Below, piece after piece: positions 7,564 through 56,871 of a DNA stretch of 64,000 bases. Made by a program: the position numbers and the translations under genes. The stretch lies in NCBI GenBank assembly GCA_007376135.1, contig VMFR01000001.1, positions 142,554-206,553 of the forward strand, in the 5' to 3' direction. Position 1 is the first letter of the stretch. Each line of letters opens with the position of its first letter. The DNA is from Parcubacteria group bacterium Gr01-1014_31. Its GTDB lineage: Bacteria; Patescibacteriota; Patescibacteriia; Buchananbacterales; GWA2-38-13. Under the pieces are notes generated by a model, which saw only the letters and a list, made by a program, of their open reading frames with translations, did no database searches and had not been told where the DNA came from.

Positions 7564-9690
7564 TCAACGCCCAAAACAATCAATTAAATCTTCGGTGCCG
7601 TCGTACCCGTTAATCGGCGGTGGAAGTGGTACTCCTCGCGGGTCGTAAAGAGACCGGATAGCGAACACGACATCGGCGATGTTGACACCACCATCGTCAT
7701 TCGTATCAGCAGCGTCGAGACAGGGAGGTCGAGCATCTGACAAGAAAAGGAATCTCAAGGTGAAGAGATAATCCGAACCGTCGAAATTGGAGTCGCCGTC
7801 GCTATCACCCCGAGTGAAGGGACCATTGCCTGCATAATAGTTGTTCATTATCGCGCGCAACTCCCCGGGGCGTGTTCGTGCAAAATCCTCGATACCCGAT
7901 GTTGAGACTCGCACGAAACCGTTCGCGTCAGACTCTTCGCGTATTTTCGTTTTCAGATTCTCAACCGCGAATATCACCCTTTCCGGTGCGAACGTCGTCG
8001 CAAGATGTTGTTCGAAAGCTGACATGAATCGGGAGCGAAACTCGTTGTTCTTGCTGAGATCAGTCCAAAAATCGAACTGCTCGAGAATCGAAATTGTATT
8101 CCACTCTCGAGCTCGTTCCTTATAGAAGCCCCAGTCGGAATCAAAAAGAACCCAGCGCCACTTACCGTCGGGGCGACCTCTCCAGATAGCAATGTTGTGC
8201 CTAAGCCAATCAATTCGATTGAGATATACATTCGTAATAACGTAATCCAGATAACTGTCCAGATCTATCCTGCTGGTTACATAGTTGTAATATTCCTCTT
8301 GCGACAAATCGTGCGTCGCGGCATAGTTGAGCAAAGTACGGTATTCTGCGTCGTCGCCATGTCGGACCTGCAGTTCATAATTTGACCACTCGAGCAAATC
8401 AATGTCTTCTAGGTTAAGATCATAGTGTGCTGCCAAAAAATGTTCATTCATCTTCTCGCGCAACCAATACGCACTAGTATTTATTGTCCCGTTAACGAGA
8501 TAGGCGCGGACTAGGAGATACGCCTGTGAATCAAAATCCATATTTGACGTCAGTTCGCGCGCGAGAGCATCCCGCAGGGGAAAATATATCGGCGTTTCCG
8601 ACCCGTAACGCAACAGCAACCCCTCGTATGAGGTGAACGGCTGGTCCGGAAAAACCTGATATAAAATTTCACCACTCCCATACCGCCTCCGTGCATATAG
8701 AGCGAGCGACGGGTGGTCGATATTGTGTCCATGCACCTCAACTCCGACATCTTGAGAAATAACATGGTTGCCATTAGGCAAGAAATAGTCGAGATGCGCT
8801 GGCAGCTCTTGGTACGGGGTTTGTGCATAGGACAAGGCAATCACCCCAGTACCGGTTTTTTCACGATCCAGAATGTAGGTAAATGTTTCAACCGGACTCG
8901 CAATCAGATTTGGTGCATATGTTCTCGCACGAACCATGACTGTTCCCCCAAGCTCCATCGGATTTGTGTACCCAGTCGACTGTCTGGTGGGTGTAGTGCC
9001 ATTGGTCGTGATGAAAATCGAGGCACCCTGGGTAGTGCTCATCAGAGTCAGCCTCTGTGGGCTTGGATAGAAACCACTAGGTATTGATGGCCCTGGCTTC
9101 CCTGCAACGCCATCGTACGCGGTCGAAATATTAGCGCCCCCAGGGGTTGGTACATCAAAAAAGCGCAAGGCGACCCAGCCATCAGGTTGACGGCCATAGC
9201 TTATGTCGTCTATTAGCTGCGGCACCTGAACCTCGTCAATCATCTCACGTTGCGGGGAAAATAACGAAATAGATTCGCCGTCGGCGTCAATACGAAAATT
9301 TGCGTGCAAGGCACCCGTACTTAGGCCGGTGCCGTCGGCGAATACGATTGCATACCCACGAGCCGGGATCTCAACCGACGGAAACGGCCATCTTGTTCGG
9401 CCCGAATCATCTGACAGGGAATATCCTCCTAGACCGACCGGAAACTGGTTTTGATTGTAAATTTCAATCCAATCGCTGCGATTATTTTCGTCGTCAAGCA
9501 AGCCATTCGCATTTCCCGAGACGACCTCATTAATACGCAACGGCAAAACCTCTGCGGGTCCGAGTGCAATTCGAACCGATACGTACACGATGCTCCCGGA
9601 GACTATTCCGGCCATTACGAACGTTCTCGCGAGTCGCTGGAAAGTGCGAATCTTGACCGCTGCAAGTTGTCTTTCTCCGTGTACTGCCAT
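7564..9690 (-). CDS. Secreted CotH-kinase family protein with lamin-tail, chitobiase/FN3-associated and C-terminal dockerin-like domains
   Basis: RINEVV...SDWIEIYN (LTD), FITTNGTTPT, DWLRHN...KWRWVLFDSDWGF (CotH), FTRGDSDGD...PPCLDAADTNDDG (dockerin). Confidence 0.82.
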   Translation of the reverse strand: MAVHGERQLAAVKIRTFQRLARTFVMAGIVSGSIVYVSVRIALGPAEVLPLRINEVVSGNANGLLDDENNRSDWIEIYNQNQFPVGLGGYSLSDDSGRTRWPFPSVEIPARGYAIVFADGTGLSTGALHANFRIDADGESISLFSPQREMIDEVQVPQLIDDISYGRQPDGWVALRFFDVPTPGGANISTAYDGVAGKPGPSIPSGFYPSPQRLTLMSTTQGASIFITTNGTTPTRQSTGYTNPMELGGTVMVRARTYAPNLIASPVETFTYILDREKTGTGVIALSYAQTPYQELPAHLDYFLPNGNHVISQDVGVEVHGHNIDHPSLALYARRRYGSGEILYQVFPDQPFTSYEGLLLRYGSETPIYFPLRDALARELTSNMDFDSQAYLLVRAYLVNGTINTSAYWLREKMNEHFLAAHYDLNLEDIDLLEWSNYELQVRHGDDAEYRTLLNYAATHDLSQEEYYNYVTSRIDLDSYLDYVITNVYLNRIDWLRHNIAIWRGRPDGKWRWVLFDSDWGFYKERAREWNTISILEQFDFWTDLSKNNEFRSRFMSAFEQHLATTFAPERVIFAVENLKTKIREESDANGFVRVSTSGIEDFARTRPGELRAIMNNYYAGNGPFTRGDSDGDSNFDGSDYLFTLRFLFLSDARPPCLDAADTNDDGGVNIADVVFAIRSLYDPRGVPLPPPINGYDGTEDLIDCFGR

Positions 9691-27676: not shown

Positions 27677-29323
27677 CTAGGCGTGAGGCAACGAGCGCGT
27701 GTTCACCCCATACAACCAAAAGAAACGGCGGGGGTTCCGACGCGGCTGGAACAACTGCAGCAGCACGTGAGATACGACCATCGCCGTGAAAATGTTCACA
27801 AAGATACCGAGCGCCAGGGTGATAGCGAAGCCCTTGACGATGCTGGTAGAGAACCACATCAGAATCAGGCTGGTCAGCAACGTGGAGGCGTTCGAGTCGC
27901 GAATCGACGGCCAGGCGCGGGAATACCCGATCGCAATGGCCTTCTCCAAAGCGTTGCCCGCGCGTAATTCTTCCTTGAGGCGCTCGAAAGTCAGGATGTT
28001 GGCATCCACCGCCATGCCCAGGCTCAGCACGAACCCGGCGATACCGGCCAAGGTCATCGTCACCGGGATAAATTTGAACAAGGCCAGAAGCAGCAGCCCG
28101 TATAACACCAGCGACAAGCTCGCCAACACGCCCGGCCAGCGATAGACCAGGACCAGGTAGACAATCACCAGCAATAAACCGAACGCGCCGGCGTTCAGGC
28201 TTTTAGTCACCGCCACCTGCCCAAGCGTCGCCCCGACCGCCTGCTGGGAAATAATGGTGATCGGCACCGGCAGCGCGCCGGCGTTCAGGCGCTCTTTCAG
28301 CTGTTTGGCCTCGGCGATCGTAAAATTACCGGAAATTACGGCACTCCCGGACGAAATGACGTCGCGTACGACCGGGCTGCTGATCTCCACTCCATCCAAG
28401 AAAATACCGACGGGGCGCCCAAGGTTCTTGCGGGTGATCTCGGCAAACAGTTTGCCGCCTTCGCTATTGAATTGCAACGACACCTGCGGTTCTCCCGTCT
28501 GCGGGTCAAAGGTGACCGTCGAACGCTGCAAGTGAGCTCCGCCCAGTTCAGTATTCACCCACGGCGTGCCCGAGGATGATGGCGCGGTCTGATACAAAAT
28601 GTGACTGCAGTGGGCTTCCAGCTGGTCCCCGCTGTCGCGGCGCTCGAGCACCTTGATGATGTGGTAGCCGAACTGCGACCGTACCAGCGTTGGATACACG
28701 GCGTTGACCTTTCCGGTCCGAAAACAAACATCCTCGAATTCCGGGACGAATACTCCCAGCTGCACCCAGCCCAGATCGCCGCCCTGCTCGGCGGAACCGT
28801 CGTCCGACTGTTCACGCGCCAGCGCGGCGAAATCCGCACCGGGCTTGATCGCCGCCGTCAAACCGGCGGTCGCGCGAGATTTCACCGTTTCATCCTCCGC
28901 CGCCGGGGTAGCCGTTGCGCTGCCCACCTCCTTAAATTCCAACCGAGGCGTTTCGTCGATCAGATCGATGGCGGCCGCTACATCCGTCACGCCCGGCAAT
29001 TCCACGATGACGCGCCACTCCTGGCCGCTGCGGGCAGTCTGCACGACCGCTTCGGAAACGCCAAAAATATTCACCCGCCGCTCGATCACGTCGCGCACAC
29101 CCTCCAGGGCACCGCTCGCCTCGCCGGCGGGCACCTTGGAAATGTCCGCGGTGTAGATCAGCTGCACGCCGCCCTGCAAGTCCAAGCCCAGGCGGTAGGG
29201 TTTCACCAGGCTTGCCGGGAGCGCGCGTCCACCCGGCAGTTGCGGAAAATCCAACAACGCCGCCAGGATCGCTAAAATAAAAATGCCCAGGCACCCCAGG
29301 CGAATTTTGGTTCGGCTGCTCAT
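27677..29323 (-). CDS. secD: Protein translocase subunit SecD with inserted parvulin PPIase domain
   Basis: LGLDLQGG, IERRVN.FGVSE, GMAVDANIL.FER; insert FAALAREQSDD...GGDLGW...SQFGYHIIKV. Confidence 0.95.
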   Translation of the reverse strand: MSSRTKIRLGCLGIFILAILAALLDFPQLPGGRALPASLVKPYRLGLDLQGGVQLIYTADISKVPAGEASGALEGVRDVIERRVNIFGVSEAVVQTARSGQEWRVIVELPGVTDVAAAIDLIDETPRLEFKEVGSATATPAAEDETVKSRATAGLTAAIKPGADFAALAREQSDDGSAEQGGDLGWVQLGVFVPEFEDVCFRTGKVNAVYPTLVRSQFGYHIIKVLERRDSGDQLEAHCSHILYQTAPSSSGTPWVNTELGGAHLQRSTVTFDPQTGEPQVSLQFNSEGGKLFAEITRKNLGRPVGIFLDGVEISSPVVRDVISSGSAVISGNFTIAEAKQLKERLNAGALPVPITIISQQAVGATLGQVAVTKSLNAGAFGLLLVIVYLVLVYRWPGVLASLSLVLYGLLLLALFKFIPVTMTLAGIAGFVLSLGMAVDANILTFERLKEELRAGNALEKAIAIGYSRAWPSIRDSNASTLLTSLILMWFSTSIVKGFAITLALGIFVNIFTAMVVSHVLLQLFQPRRNPRRFFWLYGVNTRSLPHA

Positions 29324-29422
29324 GCGCTTAACAGTGCTTCGTGAGTTAAAAATCAGCGCCGCATGACGCTCTCCATTGGTCGCTATGCTAGCAAGATGTG
29401 CGCAGTTTGACAAGCCCCCGCC

Positions 29423-31214: not shown

Positions 31215-31820
31215 CTATTCCTGCACGGTGACGGAGCGCAGCACGACGTCTTCCGTCGGTCGGTCATTCGCGTCCGTCGCCACCTTTTCAATGGCCGCAA
31301 CCACGTCCATTCCCTCCACGACCATTCCGAAGTTCGTGTGCTTGCCGTCCAACCAATCGGTCGCCGCCTTGGTCACAATGAAGAACTGACTGCCGTTGGT
31401 ATTCGGGCCGGCGTTCGCCATCGCCAGCGACCCGCGCACTAATTTATGCTCGTTGATCTCATCCTCGAAACGGTAGTCCGGTCCGCCGGTACCCCAGCGC
31501 GATTTGGCGGCCAGATCCTTGCTCAGCGGATCGCCGCCCTGGATCATAAAATCGCTAATGACGCGGTGAAACCGCGTGCCGTCGTAAAAGCCTTCCCGGG
31601 CCAGTTTGACGAAATTGTCGACGGTCTTTGGCGCGTCCGAGCGGTAGAGCTCGACCACGATCGTCCCCTTGCTGGTAACCAATGTTGCACGCATAGTTGT
31701 GGCAATTGGCGTCGGCGTCGGAGTGGGCGTCACCGCCACCCCGCCGGCCGGCAGATTAGAATTTTTTACGCAGCCGGCGATGAGGACGGCCGCAATGAGA
31801 AGAAATGATCGTGGTCGCAT
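31215..31820 (-). CDS. Cyclophilin-type PPIase, predicted lipoprotein
   Basis: LIAGC lipobox; FHRVI.DFMIQGGDP, MANAGPNTNGSQFFI, WLDGKHT. Confidence 0.93.
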   Translation of the reverse strand: MRPRSFLLIAAVLIAGCVKNSNLPAGGVAVTPTPTPTPIATTMRATLVTSKGTIVVELYRSDAPKTVDNFVKLAREGFYDGTRFHRVISDFMIQGGDPLSKDLAAKSRWGTGGPDYRFEDEINEHKLVRGSLAMANAGPNTNGSQFFIVTKAATDWLDGKHTNFGMVVEGMDVVAAIEKVATDANDRPTEDVVLRSVTVQE

Positions 31821-32019
31821 AGTATTCTGTATTAACTATCCCCAAGCCATACACCGTTTCACCCTTGACGGGCCTCACCCTGCCCATCTCGCGTTTTTGA
31901 ACAGTGCAATATTGGGGATAAAGTAATAAACTGCCTTTTCTGACCGTCGATGCACGCGCTTTGTCCCGCTCCATCCTGGGGGGAAATCGAACCTTCATAC
32001 TGGGCTCTCCCACACATTG

Positions 32020-32090
32020 CTGGGGGGGAAGGAATCGAACCTTCATTCGCAGCTCCAAAGGCTGCTGTCCTGCCATTAGACGACCCCCCA
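32020..32090 (-). tRNA. tRNA-Gln(TTG), intact, no encoded CCA
   Basis: TGGGGGG TC GTCT AATGGC AGGAC A GCAGC CTTTGGA GCTGC GAAT GAAGG TTCGATT CCTTC CCCCCCA G. Confidence 0.95.
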
Positions 32091-32199
32091 GCAATGTGTG
32101 GGACCTTGCCCGACTCCGCGCCTGCCCCGTCGTATGACGGGGCCCTGTTTTACCCCACACCTTTCGACCTTAAATAGCAGAGCTACTTTGCTTGCCTAC

Positions 32200-32270
32200 C
32201 CGCGGGAGCAGAACTCGAATCTGGATTCACGGCTCCAAAGGCTGCTGTCCTGCCCTTAGACGATCCCGTA
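32200..32270 (-). pseudogene. Degenerate tRNA-Gln(TTG)
   Basis: Same D and anticodon loop pattern as the intact copy, but mismatches in the acceptor (A-C), anticodon (A-C) and T stems (C-C), and A53 in place of G53. Confidence 0.75.
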
Positions 32271-32359
32271 GTTATGGAAGCGATAGTACTAAAGGTCAAA
32301 AGGTGTGGAGCGAGGACGACCCCCCCCAGGACGGGACGCAACGTCCACCGGTACCGGCA

Positions 32360-32587
32360 TCAACTGAACCGCACCGCGTTATAGATCTTCCTGGCAGCAA
32401 AGTACATGACGAAGGCGAAAAAGACTCCCAGATACCCGAAGGTGCCGACCTTGAGCGGCAGCGAAATGTGTTGGCCGACGATGAAGTTGACGACTTCAAG
32501 CACTAAGAGCACGCCCATCAGGATCATCACGATGAAGATGAGCATGACCACGGTCAGAATGGTTTCCAAAAGCCGGCCGGCGTGCAT
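32360..32587 (-). CDS. Small two-TM membrane protein
   Basis: 75 aa hydrophobic ORF with a TTGACG-N17/18-TACGCT promoter-like sequence upstream (about 32602-32630). Confidence 0.65.
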   Translation of the reverse strand: MHAGRLLETILTVVMLIFIVMILMGVLLVLEVVNFIVGQHISLPLKVGTFGYLGVFFAFVMYFAARKIYNAVRFS

Positions 32588-32637
32588 AGGTACGAAGTGG
32601 TAGCGTAGCGGGCGGGGGGCGAAACGTCAATCCCGCC

Positions 32638-33552
32638 TCAAACTTTCAGGTAACGGCGCACGGCGAACACCGATCCCACCATATTTAGCGCCGACATTCC
32701 CAGCAGTTGCGAACCGAAGATGGCCACAAAGTTCTCGCGGAAATAGCCAGCCAGATCGAGCGGTACGCCGGTAAAGAAATCCTGAAGATACGGCTGCACC
32801 GCATTCAGCAACGGGAATGTGACCGCCACAGCGAGTCCGGTCGCGCACAGCGCGTACAGCACGCCCTCCAGCACGAACGGCGCGGTGATGAACGCGTTGG
32901 ACGCGCCGACCAGCTTCATAATGCCGATCTCGTCGCGGTGCGTATAGATCGCGACGCGGATGGTGTTGAACACGATCAGCGTGGCGATCAGGACGAACAG
33001 CGCCGATATCGCGATCCCCGCCTGGTTAATGCGGTCGGCGATCAGTCGGATCTCGTTGATCGTACGCTGGTGGTCCTTATAGTTCTCGTCGCTGACCAGA
33101 TCGCGGTACGGCGAATGGTTGAGCACCTGGATGATCTCCGGGTAGTCCGAGGGGTGTTGTGCGGTCACCACCAGCGTCGCTCCCAGCGGGTTGTCGCCCA
33201 GCTCCTCCAGAGTCTCCAGGATGGCAGCGTCACGGGCGTGCCGCTGGCGGAATTCTTTCATCGCATCGTCGGCGGTCACGAGCGTGATGGCGGTCACCTG
33301 TGAAAGCTTGCCCAAGTAGTCCTGCACCTCTTTGACCTTCGGCGTGTCCACCACCGGGTCAAAGTAAATGCTGACGTCGATCTTTTGCTCGAGGGAGGTA
33401 ACGGCGGAATCGGCGACGACATTGAGCGCCAGCAGCGCATTGACCGTCAACGACGCCAGCGCGATGATGCTGACGGTCACCAGCGACAGCCAGAAATTGC
33501 GCCAGAACCCTTGCCAGGCGAATTTAATGACGCGGTAGATGGTCACGAGCAT
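32638..33552 (-). CDS. ftsX: Cell division permease FtsX
   Basis: NPLGA, IVFNTIRVAIYTHRDEIGIMKLVGASNAFITAPF. Confidence 0.92.
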   Translation of the reverse strand: MLVTIYRVIKFAWQGFWRNFWLSLVTVSIIALASLTVNALLALNVVADSAVTSLEQKIDVSIYFDPVVDTPKVKEVQDYLGKLSQVTAITLVTADDAMKEFRQRHARDAAILETLEELGDNPLGATLVVTAQHPSDYPEIIQVLNHSPYRDLVSDENYKDHQRTINEIRLIADRINQAGIAISALFVLIATLIVFNTIRVAIYTHRDEIGIMKLVGASNAFITAPFVLEGVLYALCATGLAVAVTFPLLNAVQPYLQDFFTGVPLDLAGYFRENFVAIFGSQLLGMSALNMVGSVFAVRRYLKV

Positions 33553-34357: not shown

Positions 34358-34548
34358 GCGGGATTAGTACCATGGTAGTACGTCGGCTTCCCTCGCCCCT
34401 CACCTTTACGATTGGCTCTCTGCGGGTGTAGTACAGTGGTAGTATGCTAGCTTCCCAAGCTAGAGATGGGAGTTCGATTCTCCTCACCCGCTCCAGGTAA
34501 AGGTGTGGGGGCAAGCAAAAGACGCGAGTTCGATTCTCGTATCCCGCT
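34358..34548 (+). pseudogene. Outer interrupted tRNA-Gly(CCC) shell (exons 34358-34392 and 34513-34548)
   Basis: GCGGGAT TA GTAC CATGGTA GTAC G TCGGC TT CCC | 120-nt insert | AA GCAAA AGAC GCGAG TTCGATT CTCGT ATCCCGC T; intact acceptor, D and T arms, mismatched anticodon stem. Confidence 0.85.
34422..34495 (+). tRNA. tRNA-Gly(CCC), intact with CCA, nested in the outer Gly shell
   Basis: GCGGGTG TA GTAC AGTGGTA GTAT G CTAGC TTCCCAA GCTAG AGAT GGGAG TTCGATT CTCCT CACCCGC T CCA. Confidence 0.95.
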
Positions 34549-34589
34549 CGCTGCCGCGGTTCGGCAGGATATTCGCGCGGTTGCCTTAG

Positions 34590-34808
34590 GCCGAAGTACT
34601 TTCACATCTTGCCTTGCCGGAGTAGCTCAGCCGGTAGAGCAGTGCTTTCGTAAAGCAAAGGTCGAGGGTTCGAGTCCCTCCTCCGGCTTGGCAAGATGTG
34701 AAAGATGCCGATCATTGTGGGTTTCCCGCCGTTCTCCTCTTTCGGTTATTGAAATATAGGGAGGAGGGACCCCGCCGACGGCGGTGGCGACTCCCACCTT
34801 CGGCTCCA
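34590..34808 (+). pseudogene. Outer decayed tRNA-Thr-like shell
   Basis: 5' GCCGAAG-TA (34590-34598) pairs perfectly with 3' CTTCGGC followed by T-CCA (34798-34808); eroded T arm GTGG-CGACT-CCCAC. Confidence 0.7.
34616..34688 (+). tRNA. tRNA-Thr(CGT), intact, no encoded CCA, nested in the outer shell
   Basis: GCCGGAG TA GCTC AGCCGGTA GAGC A GTGCT TTCGTAA AGCAA AGGTC GAGGG TTCGAGT CCCTC CTCCGGC T. Confidence 0.95.
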
Positions 34809-34884
34809 GACAACTCCGTAAATAGGAAAGATCGGCGCCCGCAGCAGCCGATTTTTCATATCCGCTGCCCTCCGGAAACTGGAA

Positions 34885-52999: not shown

Positions 53000-55753
53000 T
53001 TACGGCGCGACCGTGATGGTGGTACCCCAGAATGCATCGGTCACCAAGCGGTCGTGGTACTGCAGTACCGAGCCCTGCTGGCTCAGCTGTTCGCCGGCCG
53101 CCGGGTACGTCGTGCGTACGGTTTGGGCTCCGCCAAGGCGCAGGATCGAGAGCAGCTCGTCGCCCAACGTCCCGGGCTGCTTCTGTGCCAGCAGCGTGTA
53201 GGCATAATTGGCTTGGGCCAGCGTGAACGGCAGCCGATACACCAGCGTCGCGGATCTTTGCTCCCCTGGTTTCACCGCCAGCCAATGGGCAAAGACCGTT
53301 TTGCCCATTTCTTCATACGTCTCAACACCGGACAACGGGTCGCGCCGATGGGAACTCTCCACCGCCAAAAGGTCGGCGTCCTGAGAAAAACCAGGCTCGT
53401 CGGGCTCAAAAACGGCTCCCTCCGGCACCGCGAATCCTTCGGCGGTCAAGAGTTCGCTGCCGCGCGGGACGTACACGCGCACCCAGCTGTTGTTCTGCAC
53501 GCCGCTGAACGGATCGCTGCGGCTCCCTTGGTGCGTACGGGTAACGGTCAGCGTCACCACGAGCTGGCCGTCGGCGCCGACCATGACATCGTGGCGCAGG
53601 CTGGTCTGCACCACCCGGTCGGTCTTGCCTCCGGCGATATTGGTATTCACGACCATCAGGTAATCGCTCAGCCCCGAGGGCACCAACCGGCCGGTCCACC
53701 CCAGGTCGTCCATGATCTGCTGGGCCTGCTCATCGGTGCTATACACCATCAGATGACGTTCCTTGACGGCCGCATACATGACCGTCAGGAGGCGCTGCCG
53801 CTGCTCCGCGGTCAATTGCTGCATGCGCTCCAGGATCTTTGGCGCCAGTTGGCCGACGAACAGTTTCGGTTGATTCAGCGTCCGGTCGTACTCGACCTCG
53901 ACGATCTGCTGTGTCTCGGCGGTGAAATTCTCCGACGTGATGGTGCGGCCGTACTCCGGCATCGGGATCGGGCCGACAACCTCCAGAATGCGCTCCAAGA
54001 CGGTGTTCGTCACGCCGATCACGCCATCAACGCTGCCGCCCCGGGACTGCTCGATGAACCACGCCGCCTTGCGCGCGCTGGTCGGAAAATCCGGCCACCA
54101 GTTAGCGTCGTGAAATTCCCAGCGCGGATTGATGAGGTGCAGCGGTTCGGGCGACCGCACCAGCGCCAGCAGCTGTCCCTGCAGATCGTAGGTACCGCCG
54201 CCCGGAATCTCCAGGTTGGTGATGCGACCGTCCTCGACGTCCATCAGCGCGAAGCTGCCGACAAACCCGCCGGTGGCGCGCAGCTCCGTGTTGTTCTGAA
54301 AGAGCAGCAGATACCGCTGCCACTGGTCGCTCCCCAGCAACCGCAACACGGAACGGGTAATGGCCGCGGTGTCCAGCAGCGTGGATTCCAGTTCCGGCAG
54401 CGCCCGTACCGCGCGTAAAAATTCATCACGGGTGCCAAGCCCAAGCGTTTGGACCCCGACGTCATCCAGCACGCTCCGCGCCTGGGCAACGGCCGGCAAG
54501 GCCACGGCAAGATTCGTGTTCAGGTCGACGATCGCATCCAATGCCGACGGCCAGTCGGACCACCCGTCGCGCTGGTCAACCGCGGCCATACTGGAAGAAA
54601 AACGCTGTCCGACCTGGGCGAGCTGCTCCCCGGCGGAAAGTAACGAAAGCCCTGCGGTGAGCGTCCGCCGGCCCTGGGGGACGATCTGCAGCAGCGCGCG
54701 AGTAAAGAAATCAAGCCCCTCGTACTCGCCTCGGGCCGACTGGAATTCACGCTCTGCGCGCTGAAAGGCATCGGCTGCGGCCGCCAGGCGGAATTCTCGC
54801 AAGTGCTCCTTGCCGGACCATAGCGCGCTCAGCGCGGAAGCGGAATATCCCATCAGCCGGTCCCGCACGTCCGACACCTCCTGGTAGTAGACCCCGATCT
54901 GGATCGGCAGCAGCATGATTACGCAGGCCGTAATGAACTGCAGCGACCAACGCGCCAATCCGGAATGCGGCAACGGGTCGCTCGTCGGCAGCCCAACGGA
55001 TGGGGCCTCGCCCGGCCGAAACACGGCCTCCGTCGGCCGCTGGTTGTAGCGCGATTGCAGCACGCGCTGCTGGCGCTTCAGCGTCCGAAGACGGAATGGC
55101 CAGTAGAGCGCGCGGATCGGCCACGTCGCGGTACGCACCACCCCGGTCACGGACAACGCATTGACCCGAGCCAGGCGCTGCGTGCCGACGGATGGCGGCA
55201 AGGGAGCTTCCGCAGGAATTTCCTCGTGGGTTGCCATTGCGGGTTGGGCAGGGATATCCTGGGCCAGGATTCGAAGCTCTGGTCGCGGCGGCAGCCGGAG
55301 ATTCCCGGCCGCATCGAACAGGTCGGCCGTCTCCACTTGGGCCGCAACGGGTATTTCAAATGTTGCGGGCAGCCCGGGCAATTCAGCCTCCGCGGGGGAT
55401 CGAACGGCCTCAACCTCCTCGTTCACGGACGGCAACGCCTGCGGCGTCTCCCTATGAACGGCCGCTGGCGGAACGGCGCCAACCTCATTCACCCATACCG
55501 CAATTGCCGGGGTGGGCGGTCCCGACGGCGCCGCCGATACTGCACCGCTGACCGCCGCCGGCGGATTGTCTCCCCGGCGTTCAACAGCAGCGGCCGCAAC
55601 CACGGCTACCGTTGCCGGTTGCAAGGACGCGGCTACGCTCTTTTTCGGCAGCATACGTTTTTTCGAAAAAACACGGCCCCGCCGAATCGCAACCTTTCGA
55701 CGGGTTGCGCGGGCCGAACGTATCGCTTTTTTTATTTTTTTTACTCGCTTCAT
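53000..55753 (-). CDS. DUF4012 domain protein
   Basis: RYLLLFQNNTELRATGGFVGS, DANWWPDFPTSA, NIAGGKTD. Confidence 0.85.
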   Translation of the reverse strand: MKRVKKIKKAIRSARATRRKVAIRRGRVFSKKRMLPKKSVAASLQPATVAVVAAAAVERRGDNPPAAVSGAVSAAPSGPPTPAIAVWVNEVGAVPPAAVHRETPQALPSVNEEVEAVRSPAEAELPGLPATFEIPVAAQVETADLFDAAGNLRLPPRPELRILAQDIPAQPAMATHEEIPAEAPLPPSVGTQRLARVNALSVTGVVRTATWPIRALYWPFRLRTLKRQQRVLQSRYNQRPTEAVFRPGEAPSVGLPTSDPLPHSGLARWSLQFITACVIMLLPIQIGVYYQEVSDVRDRLMGYSASALSALWSGKEHLREFRLAAAADAFQRAEREFQSARGEYEGLDFFTRALLQIVPQGRRTLTAGLSLLSAGEQLAQVGQRFSSSMAAVDQRDGWSDWPSALDAIVDLNTNLAVALPAVAQARSVLDDVGVQTLGLGTRDEFLRAVRALPELESTLLDTAAITRSVLRLLGSDQWQRYLLLFQNNTELRATGGFVGSFALMDVEDGRITNLEIPGGGTYDLQGQLLALVRSPEPLHLINPRWEFHDANWWPDFPTSARKAAWFIEQSRGGSVDGVIGVTNTVLERILEVVGPIPMPEYGRTITSENFTAETQQIVEVEYDRTLNQPKLFVGQLAPKILERMQQLTAEQRQRLLTVMYAAVKERHLMVYSTDEQAQQIMDDLGWTGRLVPSGLSDYLMVVNTNIAGGKTDRVVQTSLRHDVMVGADGQLVVTLTVTRTHQGSRSDPFSGVQNNSWVRVYVPRGSELLTAEGFAVPEGAVFEPDEPGFSQDADLLAVESSHRRDPLSGVETYEEMGKTVFAHWLAVKPGEQRSATLVYRLPFTLAQANYAYTLLAQKQPGTLGDELLSILRLGGAQTVRTTYPAAGEQLSQQGSVLQYHDRLVTDAFWGTTITVAP

Positions 55754-56871
55754 TTGAAAGTCATCAGGGCTTCTCGATAGATGTCCCACGTTTTCTGCGC
55801 CGTAACGTCCCACCGGTAACGGGAAACCACCGAGGACGAAATCGTTCGTACTTTCGCTCGTTCATTCTCGTCCAGCAGCAGCCGCATCACCTTGGCCATC
55901 TCCACCGGCTGGTCGGGGGGGAAGTATCGGCCCGCATCGCCGATGATCTCCGGCACGCTGGTGGTCTGCGATGCGGCAACCGGCGTTCCGCAGGCGAGCG
56001 ACTCAACGGCGATCAGCCCGAACCCCTCGGAAAATGACGGCACAACCGTCATGACCGCCCCCTGGAACAACGCGGGCAGGTCGGCATCCGGAATGAACCC
56101 CGGCGTCACGATCGATCCGGTCTCATCGTGCGCCAATGCCGCGGCGATCTTTTCGTCCTCTCCCTGGCGCGCACCGCCTAATACCAGTTGGCCGCGAAAA
56201 CCGAATGTTTTCCGCAGTTCGCCAAAGGCCGCGATCAACCCGGGCAGATTCTTGTGGTCGCGCCAGACCCCGGTGTAAAAAAGGTACGGCTGAGCGATGT
56301 GATACCGCTCCAGCGTGGCTTTGATTATACCATAATCCCTGGCCGGCTGGAACGAGGGCGCAACTCCGGGGTAGACTACCCGGATATTGGGCGCGCCGCG
56401 CGGCCAGCGCTGCGCCAGCGCCATGGCGGTAGAGCGGGAAACCGCGATCACCCGGACGGCCCGCCGGATGGCGGAACTCATGACCTGCCGGTAGGCCGCG
56501 CGGCGCCACCACCACCGCCGCTGGTTGGGGCCCGGAAAATCGAACGGCGTAAGGTCGTGGACGGTAACTACGAATTTTCCGCGAAAACGCAAAGGAATAT
56601 TGAAATTCGGAAAATGCCAGAGGTCGCACCGCTGGGCGGAAAGTATGGACGGAAGCTGCAGTTGTTCGCGCCAGCTGTACCAGGGGATATCCGACGTCAC
56701 CACTTTCACCATGTCGTGGCGCGGCAGCCGTGCCGCATCAGGCTCGCGCACCAGCACCACCAGCTCATCATTGCCGATGCTCGCCGCCAGCGCCTGCACC
56801 AGCTGTTGGACGTAGATGCCAATACCGGTCACCCCGCTGCCGAACATTCTGGCGTCAATGCCGATACGCAT
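55750..56871 (-). CDS. Glycosyltransferase family 4
   Basis: MRIGIDAR, VTVHDL, HKNL, SEGFGL. Confidence 0.9.
   Translation of the reverse strand: MRIGIDARMFGSGVTGIGIYVQQLVQALAASIGNDELVVLVREPDAARLPRHDMVKVVTSDIPWYSWREQLQLPSILSAQRCDLWHFPNFNIPLRFRGKFVVTVHDLTPFDFPGPNQRRWWWRRAAYRQVMSSAIRRAVRVIAVSRSTAMALAQRWPRGAPNIRVVYPGVAPSFQPARDYGIIKATLERYHIAQPYLFYTGVWRDHKNLPGLIAAFGELRKTFGFRGQLVLGGARQGEDEKIAAALAHDETGSIVTPGFIPDADLPALFQGAVMTVVPSFSEGFGLIAVESLACGTPVAASQTTSVPEIIGDAGRYFPPDQPVEMAKVMRLLLDENERAKVRTISSSVVSRYRWDVTAQKTWDIYREALMTFK

Follow-up and report, generated by a model that had tools for sequence, protein, structure and literature searches.

Comparison of its parts with related genes indicates that the tRNA-Gln locus analyzed here is a dead tRNA-Gln gene split by 3 adjacent inserts, a cassette (i), a hairpin (ii), and a second cassette (iii). 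The locus is probably the scar of serial invasion by selfish, self-rescuing cassettes, presumably mobilized by a single-domain GIY-YIG nuclease of approximately 85 amino acids. Such cassettes would survive in an essential gene because they supply an intact replacement with the same anticodon, and judged from their sequences the elements occur in forms with a nuclease gene, with a tRNA, or nearly empty.

Architecture of the tRNA-Gln locus

The locus lies in a 64-kb stretch of DNA (the window), which is part of a 1.34-Mb host genome that is 99.7% complete (G000), and is flanked by ftsE-ftsX and an ORF of 75 amino acids on one side and by a gene for a cyclophilin-type PPIase on the other. The initial annotation had described here a doubly nested tRNA-Gln locus forming a multi-arm RNA of approximately 420 nt, and every arm it quoted was found where it had been placed: an outermost helix (32357-32364/31946-31953), a closing helix (32322-32334/31971-31983), stem i (32292-32310/32153-32171), hairpin ii (32124-32143), and stem iii (32091-32103/32008-32020). 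Its intact and degenerate tRNA-Gln copies were also recovered with Rfam, in which the intact tRNA-Gln(TTG) scored 62 bits and the degenerate copy (32200-32270) 28.8 bits against a gathering score of 29, with 3 broken pairs. The locus is not an assembly artefact, because a contig with 0 differences covers it entirely (n = 1, from a run that is possibly the source of the assembly), strain contigs from 3 other studies each cover it in part (none covers it entirely), and the congener G002 carries the same nest at this locus with 78% identity. The parts of the locus are the following:

32360..32587, minus strand: hydrophobic ORF of 75 aa between ftsX and the locus (translation); the proposed outermost helix reaches into its last codon and stop
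32329..32337, minus strand: 5' arm of the extension stem of the outer acceptor (sequence, fold); an equivalent helix exists in G002
32315..32328, minus strand: outer dead tRNA-Gln, piece 1, 5' strands of acceptor stem and D-stem; matches the inner copy at 11/12 positions
32149..32314, minus strand: cassette (i), bounded by inverted repeats and located in the D-loop of the outer copy; on each side, 4 terminal bases add to the arms (32292-32310 and 32153-32171)
32200..32270, minus strand: middle degenerate tRNA-Gln(TTG), cargo of cassette (i); its allele type is intact in G005 and G006, and the copy is shortened in G002
32143..32148, minus strand: outer tRNA-Gln, piece 2, D-stem 3' strand (sequence, alignment with G002)
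32121..32142, minus strand: hairpin (ii), a 22-nt insert following the D-stem, from a small dispersed family that the dead Glu(TTC) and Ile(TAT) shells contain as well
32112..32120, minus strand: outer tRNA-Gln, piece 3, anticodon-stem 5' strand in decayed form (compared with G002, G003, and G006 by eye)
32008..32103, minus strand: cassette (iii), located in the anticodon loop of the outer copy, with a 13-bp stem that surrounds the intact tRNA; G002 has the identical 13/13 pairs
32019..32090, minus strand: intact tRNA-Gln(TTG), no encoded CCA; 70/70 identical in G002
31977..32007, minus strand: outer tRNA-Gln, piece 4, position 37 to acceptor 3' strand, most of the T-stem 3' strand deleted; 29/31 identical to the split outer copy of G006 and 26/31 to the inner copy
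31964..31976, minus strand: 3' arm of the outer extension stem (sequence, fold)

The proposed double nesting was right in that 2 tRNA-Gln copies lie inside an outer one, but the cassettes (i) and (iii) are siblings lying side by side in a single outer copy, with neither inside the other. The outer copy is left in four pieces without the D-loop, the anticodon, and most of one T-stem strand, so excising the inserts would not yield a tRNA. At the insertion of cassette (i), 5 target bases ending in TG are absent and nothing is duplicated, and 8 bases (32104-32111) that belong to no named part precede cassette (iii). The junction of cassette (iii) had been equated with that of the Gly locus. The 3' piece indeed resumes at position 37-38. 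The 5' side, however, has lost positions 33-36, so that the junction is not fixable. For the Gly locus, 35/36 and 36/37 fit equally well. The hairpin (ii) family, defined by a strict pattern, has 4 copies in the host genome, 2/4 of them at most 500 bp from a tRNA. The intact copy is the sole Gln(TTG) called in this genome. Neither an ORF nor a nuclease gene is present inside the locus, and no match to a sigma-70-type promoter was found at 31700-32800.

Some relatives contain related nests at the same locus

In total, 21 ftsX-syntenic Gln loci were counted among the 30 loci retrieved. Fragments were detected by score in 7/21, and additionally by eye in G003; the other loci are simple. A small ORF resembling the 75-aa ORF is present at the syntenic locus in G001, G002, G003, and G006. 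Between the host genome and G002, in addition to the identical inner tRNA and stem iii, all 19/19 pairs of stem i are kept. The middle copy is identical at 51/68 positions, and G002 has a 31-base deletion over its 3' end. The initial annotation had made its reading depend on conservation of the outer helices in relatives: the outer acceptor helix and its extension do form in G002 upon folding, but the outermost 8-bp helix, which in the host genome overlaps the stop codon of the 75-aa ORF, does not. In G001 the inner cassette alone is retained, and stem iii has a variant form in G001 and G003.

With 58/68 identical positions, the middle copy resembles the intact Gln of G005 most (54/68 for the inner copy). 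The best match of the outer 3' piece is the split outer copy of G006, and the outer and inner copies share one type. The 3 Gln copies therefore represent two allele types, and their comparison demonstrates neither the three generations of tRNA-Gln proposed earlier nor an order of the two large insertions. At the same ftsX locus of G006, which belongs to another genus, a GIY-YIG ORF interrupts the anticodon of a near-perfect outer tRNA-Gln and continues into an intact tRNA-Gln, and the insert is bordered on both sides by direct repeats. G006 thus has a nuclease gene and a replacement tRNA where the host genome has no nuclease gene. No NCBIfam family was found for the G006 nuclease protein.

Split tRNA fragments and sister nests across the genome

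Own split fragments (score of at least 12) lie beside 25/47 tRNAs of the host genome, the 47 being the ARAGORN calls with a canonical T-loop. At this score, the own 5' half was found upstream in 14/47, the own 3' half downstream in 23/47, and both in 12, compared with 1 and 3 in the wrong-side controls, 0 and 2 in the antisense controls, and 4/940 at random. The best match of the fragments was the cognate tRNA in 14/14 (5') and 23/23 (3') cases. The dead shells bear recurring hairpin inserts in the D-loop and the T-loop: 10/12 and 4/4 copies of two T-loop hairpin types, and 8/21 copies of a third hairpin, lie at most 500 bp from a tRNA. Two sister nests were found in the window by sequence comparison:

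34358..34549, plus strand: intact tRNA-Gly(CCC) in a cassette of the cassette (i) repeat family, splitting another Gly allele
34590..34810, plus strand: intact tRNA-Thr(CGT) enclosed by a 15-bp stem, within a dead Thr allele that also has a T-loop insert

The outer Thr allele that is dead in the host genome is a live gene in G001, and two Gly alleles are nested reciprocally in the host genome and in G003, which indicates that the dead shells are former live alleles. The successive insertion and replacement that had been proposed from the Gln locus is borne out by these matches, since dead copies at Gln, and also at the neighboring Thr and Gly loci, correspond to alleles that are live elsewhere. 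At Lys(TTT), an insert consisting of a 5' duplication and a left repeat is present in G002, and the gene is simple in G000, G001, G003, and G006. We excluded a filled/empty pair at Gln(CTG) from polarity because collapse could also produce the form of the host genome.

The repeat of cassette (i) inserts into tRNA genes in both orientations

The core of cassette (i), CCCCACACCTTT, is present in 7 copies per strand in the host genome (0 for the reversed control) and in 12 and 15 copies in two congeners. In the host genome it lies at most 500 bp from a tRNA in 14/14 cases, vs 3.2% of the genome; two related repeat copies in congeners sit away from tRNAs. We compared 22 repeat pairs drawn from four genomes and two metagenome contigs. 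The repeat ends are asymmetric (CTTG and TGAA), and relative to the tRNA 17 pairs are oriented one way, 4 the opposite way, and 1 is a hybrid; the existence of both orientations favors insertion at the DNA level. By eye, the TGAA end directly adjoins the position of a YG dinucleotide in 21/21 oriented rows, which lack 2-5 target bases. The rows correspond to about 14 distinct sites, orthologous rows being dependent on one another. Insertions were located in D-loops, anticodon loops, T-loops, and a D-stem junction. An intact tRNA of the same isotype, always sense to the shell, is enclosed by 17/22 pairs; one pair contains a GIY-YIG pseudogene, and one element is only 41 bp long. Five elements of 287-296 bp in relatives, 3/5 of them at tRNA genes, consist of this repeat family tightly enclosing related GIY-YIG ORFs that are 41-57% identical to the one in G002. 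The resemblance of stem iii to the repeat family is weak.

The extended repeat pattern was found in 1/400 other genomes of the phylum (0.4-2.1 Mb), vs 3 control matches, which is chance level; the repeat variant of cassette (i) is thus lineage-restricted among the genomes searched. Among the matches listed of a 16-mer scan of metagenomes and viruses, a partner repeat was present in 10/128 (3/126 in the control), mostly by chance, with a tRNA in 2 and a GIY-YIG gene in 0; no GIY-YIG gene was found among 134 wider pattern matches listed, most of them chance matches.

Small GIY-YIG nucleases are linked to tRNA cassettes

The nuclease of the repeat-bounded elements is a single-domain GIY-YIG protein of approximately 85 aa, and members of its clade are mostly about 80-95 aa long; its nearest solved structures are UPF0213 and SLX1. 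Six GIY-YIG matches exist in the host genome, none of them enclosed by the cassette (i) repeat, which, like the missing nuclease gene at the tRNA-Gln locus and among the wider pattern matches, counts against the nuclease link. GIY-YIG-tRNA cassettes were found at Tyr and Ile(TAT) in the host genome and at Leu, Met, Asn, Ala, Ser, and others in relatives, some of them in tandem. The same design was present at Gln, Asn, Gly, and Pro genes in records labelled Patescibacteria, Gammaproteobacteria, Nitrospirota, Acidobacteria, and Ignavibacteria, and in a Saccharibacteria record in which the contig stops within the tRNA. Labels of Parcubacteria, Saccharibacteria, or Patescibacteria were carried by 3/4 of the best nuclease matches, which, together with the genome sizes of the phylum sample (0.4-2.1 Mb), suggests that the host is a CPR bacterium. 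Duplicated tRNA pieces were seen with other cassette types.

In a protein tree with rough support (59 proteins, 95 columns, omitting four rows, namely both pieces of a broken ORF, a truncated ORF, and a tandem duplicate), all 20 tRNA-cassette proteins grouped within a single larger clade (100/99) that did not include the hairpin-flanked Ssn-like proteins, and they were not monophyletic inside it (6 changes). Among 47 small ORFs from the 54 loci that scored best against Pfam, out of 48 and 182 matches, those in this clade (100/99) adjoined a tRNA in 16/23 cases vs 1/24 for the others, in a count in which kin are not independent and which includes orthologues, a tandem pair, and one ORF placed without the tree. 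One upstream hairpin is common to four nucleases of one clade (97/98).

Several further arrangements were observed. Tandem units of a tRNA 5' fragment, a hairpin, and a GIY-YIG gene precede an intact Met, Tyr, or Leu tRNA at L063 (G004), L084 (G005), L147, and L148, with some assembly gaps. At L090, L083 (G004), and L082 (G003), GIY-YIG genes neighbor an RNase P-like gene and follow tmRNA-like 3' ends (by eye). In the host genome, a GIY-YIG gene lies within a different 18-bp inverted repeat away from tRNAs (C8:17074-17277, L087), and a decayed repeat similar to that one is found in the dead Pro(GGG) shell. The tRNA-Ile at C5:9303-9377 of the host genome, which has a TAT anticodon, is within a GIY-YIG cassette, as it is in G002; this anticodon is unusual in bacterial tRNA-Ile.

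Alternative origins of the nested locus

A passive origin, in which replication errors such as tandem duplication and template switching at tRNA hairpins make both the fragments and the perfect stems while GIY-YIG genes merely gather in the resulting hotspots, is unlikely in our view, although it accounts for several observations. Template switching can perfect inverted repeats, and each cassette's stem is extended by locus-specific complementary bases. A new, lineage-specific hairpin of approximately 80 nt in G002 (L002:1540-1625) is composed of the 3' end of the upstream ORF and an inverted copy of it, and many tRNAs without shells have flanking extension stems. Such errors would not be expected to produce the same asymmetric ends at about 14 unrelated sites, in both orientations and with a fixed junction rule, nor a nuclease ORF tightly bracketed by the repeat family. 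The inner and outer copies are, moreover, often different alleles, nested reciprocally at Gly.

We consider improbable that the locus encodes a selected structured RNA of approximately 420 nt, either as a new non-coding RNA or as a scaffold governing maturation of the inner tRNA. Folding agrees with the initial annotation in that the region beats its shuffles (z of -7.4, 0/100 as good; -8.5 in G002) and that the sense strand folds better as RNA than the antisense strand (-212 vs -188 kcal/mol); the locus is nevertheless probably not a functional RNA of this length. The outer acceptor stem shows one two-sided change between the host genome and G002 with pairing kept. Flanking inverted repeats (score of at least 8) are more frequent at tRNAs without encoded CCA (24/31 vs 4/16; Mann-Whitney p 5e-4), an association that may reflect a processing route or the cassette origin, and the host genome encodes RNase III and a CCA-adding-type enzyme. 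Altogether, the strong conservation of the stems (19/19 and 13/13 pairs, the variant stem iii of G001 and G003, and the two-sided outer change) counts against the cassette reading in that it also fits RNA selection. The G-U wobbles that had been read as a sign of such selection were, however, not in excess genome-wide: 48 flanking stems (658 bp), scored symmetrically, contained 10 G-T vs 9 A-C mismatches, in a test of low power that included some chance stems. Even a true G-T excess could not separate RNA from a one-strand DNA hairpin, because SsnA, a nuclease discussed below, cuts one strand only (PMC11893778). The claim of RNA-level selection on a multi-arm RNA was further weakened by the comparisons above, as the repeat family inserts both ways, G002 has lost 31 nt around the 3' end of the middle copy and does not form the outermost helix, G001 retains the inner cassette alone, and other relatives have a locus of different construction or a simple one, with no fragment by score at 14/21 ftsX-syntenic Gln loci. 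Of the listed strain variants, one creates a wobble and one breaks a stem-i pair. A search of Rfam for GOLLD/ROOL-type RNAs, which the initial annotation had suggested, identified no family that explains the structure: only tRNA reached its gathering score, with three chance-level matches besides it at E<=10. The short stem round the inner tRNA might nonetheless have some role in maturation, as CCA-less tRNAs more often have such stems.

It is very improbable that the nests derive from integrase-driven islands or prophages that had the tRNA as their attachment site and were later reduced in size. Islands usually leave a duplicated 3' tRNA end as their scar, and 23/47 tRNAs have one; direct repeats are also present at the anticodon arm in the G006 insert. 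In the nests, however, the intact gene is central with fragments on both sides, the sites are in D-, anticodon, and T-loops with target loss, and full-length forms are approximately 290-400 bp with a GIY-YIG gene as their only coding content.

Introns spliced to give a working outer tRNA are the least credible explanation, because, although many junctions are at or near 35/36 (a site of group I introns in CPR tRNAs) and one group I intron is present elsewhere in the host genome, the locus gave no ribozyme match up to E 10, neither a splicing endonuclease nor RtcB was found in the 99.7% complete genome, the inserts occur in both orientations, and the outer pieces lack the parts listed above. 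That group I intron (C5:40453-40683, 57.8 bits) contains a copy of a dispersed hairpin. We also rejected a link with a reverse transcriptase: the only one in the host genome is approximately 14 kb from the nearest called tRNA, with no link shown. It is a 325-aa protein (L031, C3:510366-510959) followed by a 107-aa helix-turn-helix-like ORF, an arrangement that is possibly retron-like.

Proposed mechanism of cassette invasion

Returning to invasion by self-rescuing cassettes, we infer cassette mobility, cleavage, joining chemistry, and the capture of cognate tRNAs from sequence patterns. The nuclease would first cut a tRNA gene where its cloverleaf exposes a loop, most likely on single-stranded DNA as in the Ssn system, a SegB-like double-strand cut being nearly as probable. 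The cassette would then be joined precisely at one end and with a small loss at the other, probably by host repair, and the only events to survive would be those leaving an intact sense copy downstream of the promoter. The nuclease gene would be lost later, leaving repeat-tRNA-repeat, and the dead shell would take up further small hairpins while redundant copies decay. The long RNA fold would be a by-product of the nested inverted repeats, from which host enzymes would excise the inner tRNA.

More tentatively, these elements may form a minimal class of insertion sequences in which a GIY-YIG nuclease of approximately 85 aa serves as the transposase, recognizes its own terminal hairpin, cuts cloverleaf loops in the DNA of tRNA genes, and spreads through essential genes by means of the replacement tRNA it carries, so that tRNA alleles of CPR bacteria would be overwritten repeatedly by parasites.

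Comparison with known systems

The closest parallels are other GIY-YIG nucleases. The Ssn nucleases, such as SsnA of Neisseria, are single-domain GIY-YIG proteins encoded between hairpin repeats (SRM/NTS), a repeat-gene-repeat layout that their authors noted as insertion sequence-like (PMC11893778). Likewise, elements of the relatives contain a GIY-YIG gene of similar size (approximately 85-90 aa) flanked by its own hairpin repeats, and nuclease clade and hairpin appear paired. The tRNA- and repeat-linked proteins differ in forming a clade (100/99) separate from SRM-flanked proteins, in a tree that used a proxy for cd10448 and did not contain SsnA itself. The main text on the Ssn nucleases does not mention tRNA, and the sections consulted describe neither replacement cargo nor tRNA-loop targeting (PMC11893778).

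SegB of phage T4 is a free-standing GIY-YIG homing endonuclease encoded among tRNA genes, inside which it cuts and with which, as flanking genes, it spreads (PMC2330249). It has a C-terminal DNA-binding part, recognizes a T-arm motif in double-stranded phage DNA, and the region is replaced by allelic homing (PMC2330249). It leaves 2-nt 3' overhangs (PMC2330249), which by analogy would fit the frequent loss of 2 target bases at the cassettes. The location of GIY-YIG genes beside tRNA genes (the 16/23 of the clade) is a shared property. Unlike the cassettes, SegB is not known to have terminal repeats or to nest a tRNA in its own split copy. A separate C-terminal DNA-binding part was not found in the cassette nucleases, mostly of about 80-95 aa.

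The cassettes also share properties with mobile elements of other kinds. They have terminal inverted repeats, insert in either orientation (17 vs 4), have forms down to 41 bp, and show a lineage-restricted burst; terminal inverted repeats and coding as well as non-coding forms are known for insertion sequences, MITEs, and REP/REPIN-RAYT. In contrast to these, the target bases of the cassettes are lost (2-5, by eye) and not duplicated, and the only ORF is GIY-YIG. With regard to REPIN/RAYT and IS200/IS605, no Y1 transposase (PF01797) was found in the host genome, in a search whose control was positive in 6/14. Integrative elements that target tRNA genes rely on integrase recombination, and a partial copy at the junction makes the gene whole again. 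They are similar to the cassettes in using tRNA genes as insertion sites and in keeping the host alive by a restored working gene, but the cassettes, of 100-400 bp, carry a whole tRNA inside. Group I introns differ in that the cassettes contain no ribozyme core and the outer exons do not rejoin to a complete tRNA. We found no description of nested-tRNA or GIY-YIG-tRNA cassettes in the literature searched, which included few subscription papers.

This locus contributes the junction rule, with a YG dinucleotide and two orientations, and the tie between one repeat family and one nuclease subgroup. If the cassette reading is correct, many small GIY-YIG genes without a known role would be mobile elements that target and rescue tRNA genes, following a strategy intermediate between homing endonucleases, Ssn repeats, and insertion sequences. 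This would account for the fact that about half of the tRNA genes of a small genome lie amid their own wreckage, would provide a way in which tRNA alleles are exchanged rapidly, and would caution annotators against labelling such loci as introns or as structured RNAs of a new kind. With the junction rule and the intact elements of approximately 290 bp, cleavage and transposition can be tested directly, and site-specific nucleases of approximately 85 aa could be useful tools.

Other features of the window

The window contains two large ORFs without an NCBIfam match, at 53000-55813 (937 aa) and 7564-9690 (708 aa). At 27677-29413 it encodes a SecD protein with an inserted PPIase domain of the parvulin type.
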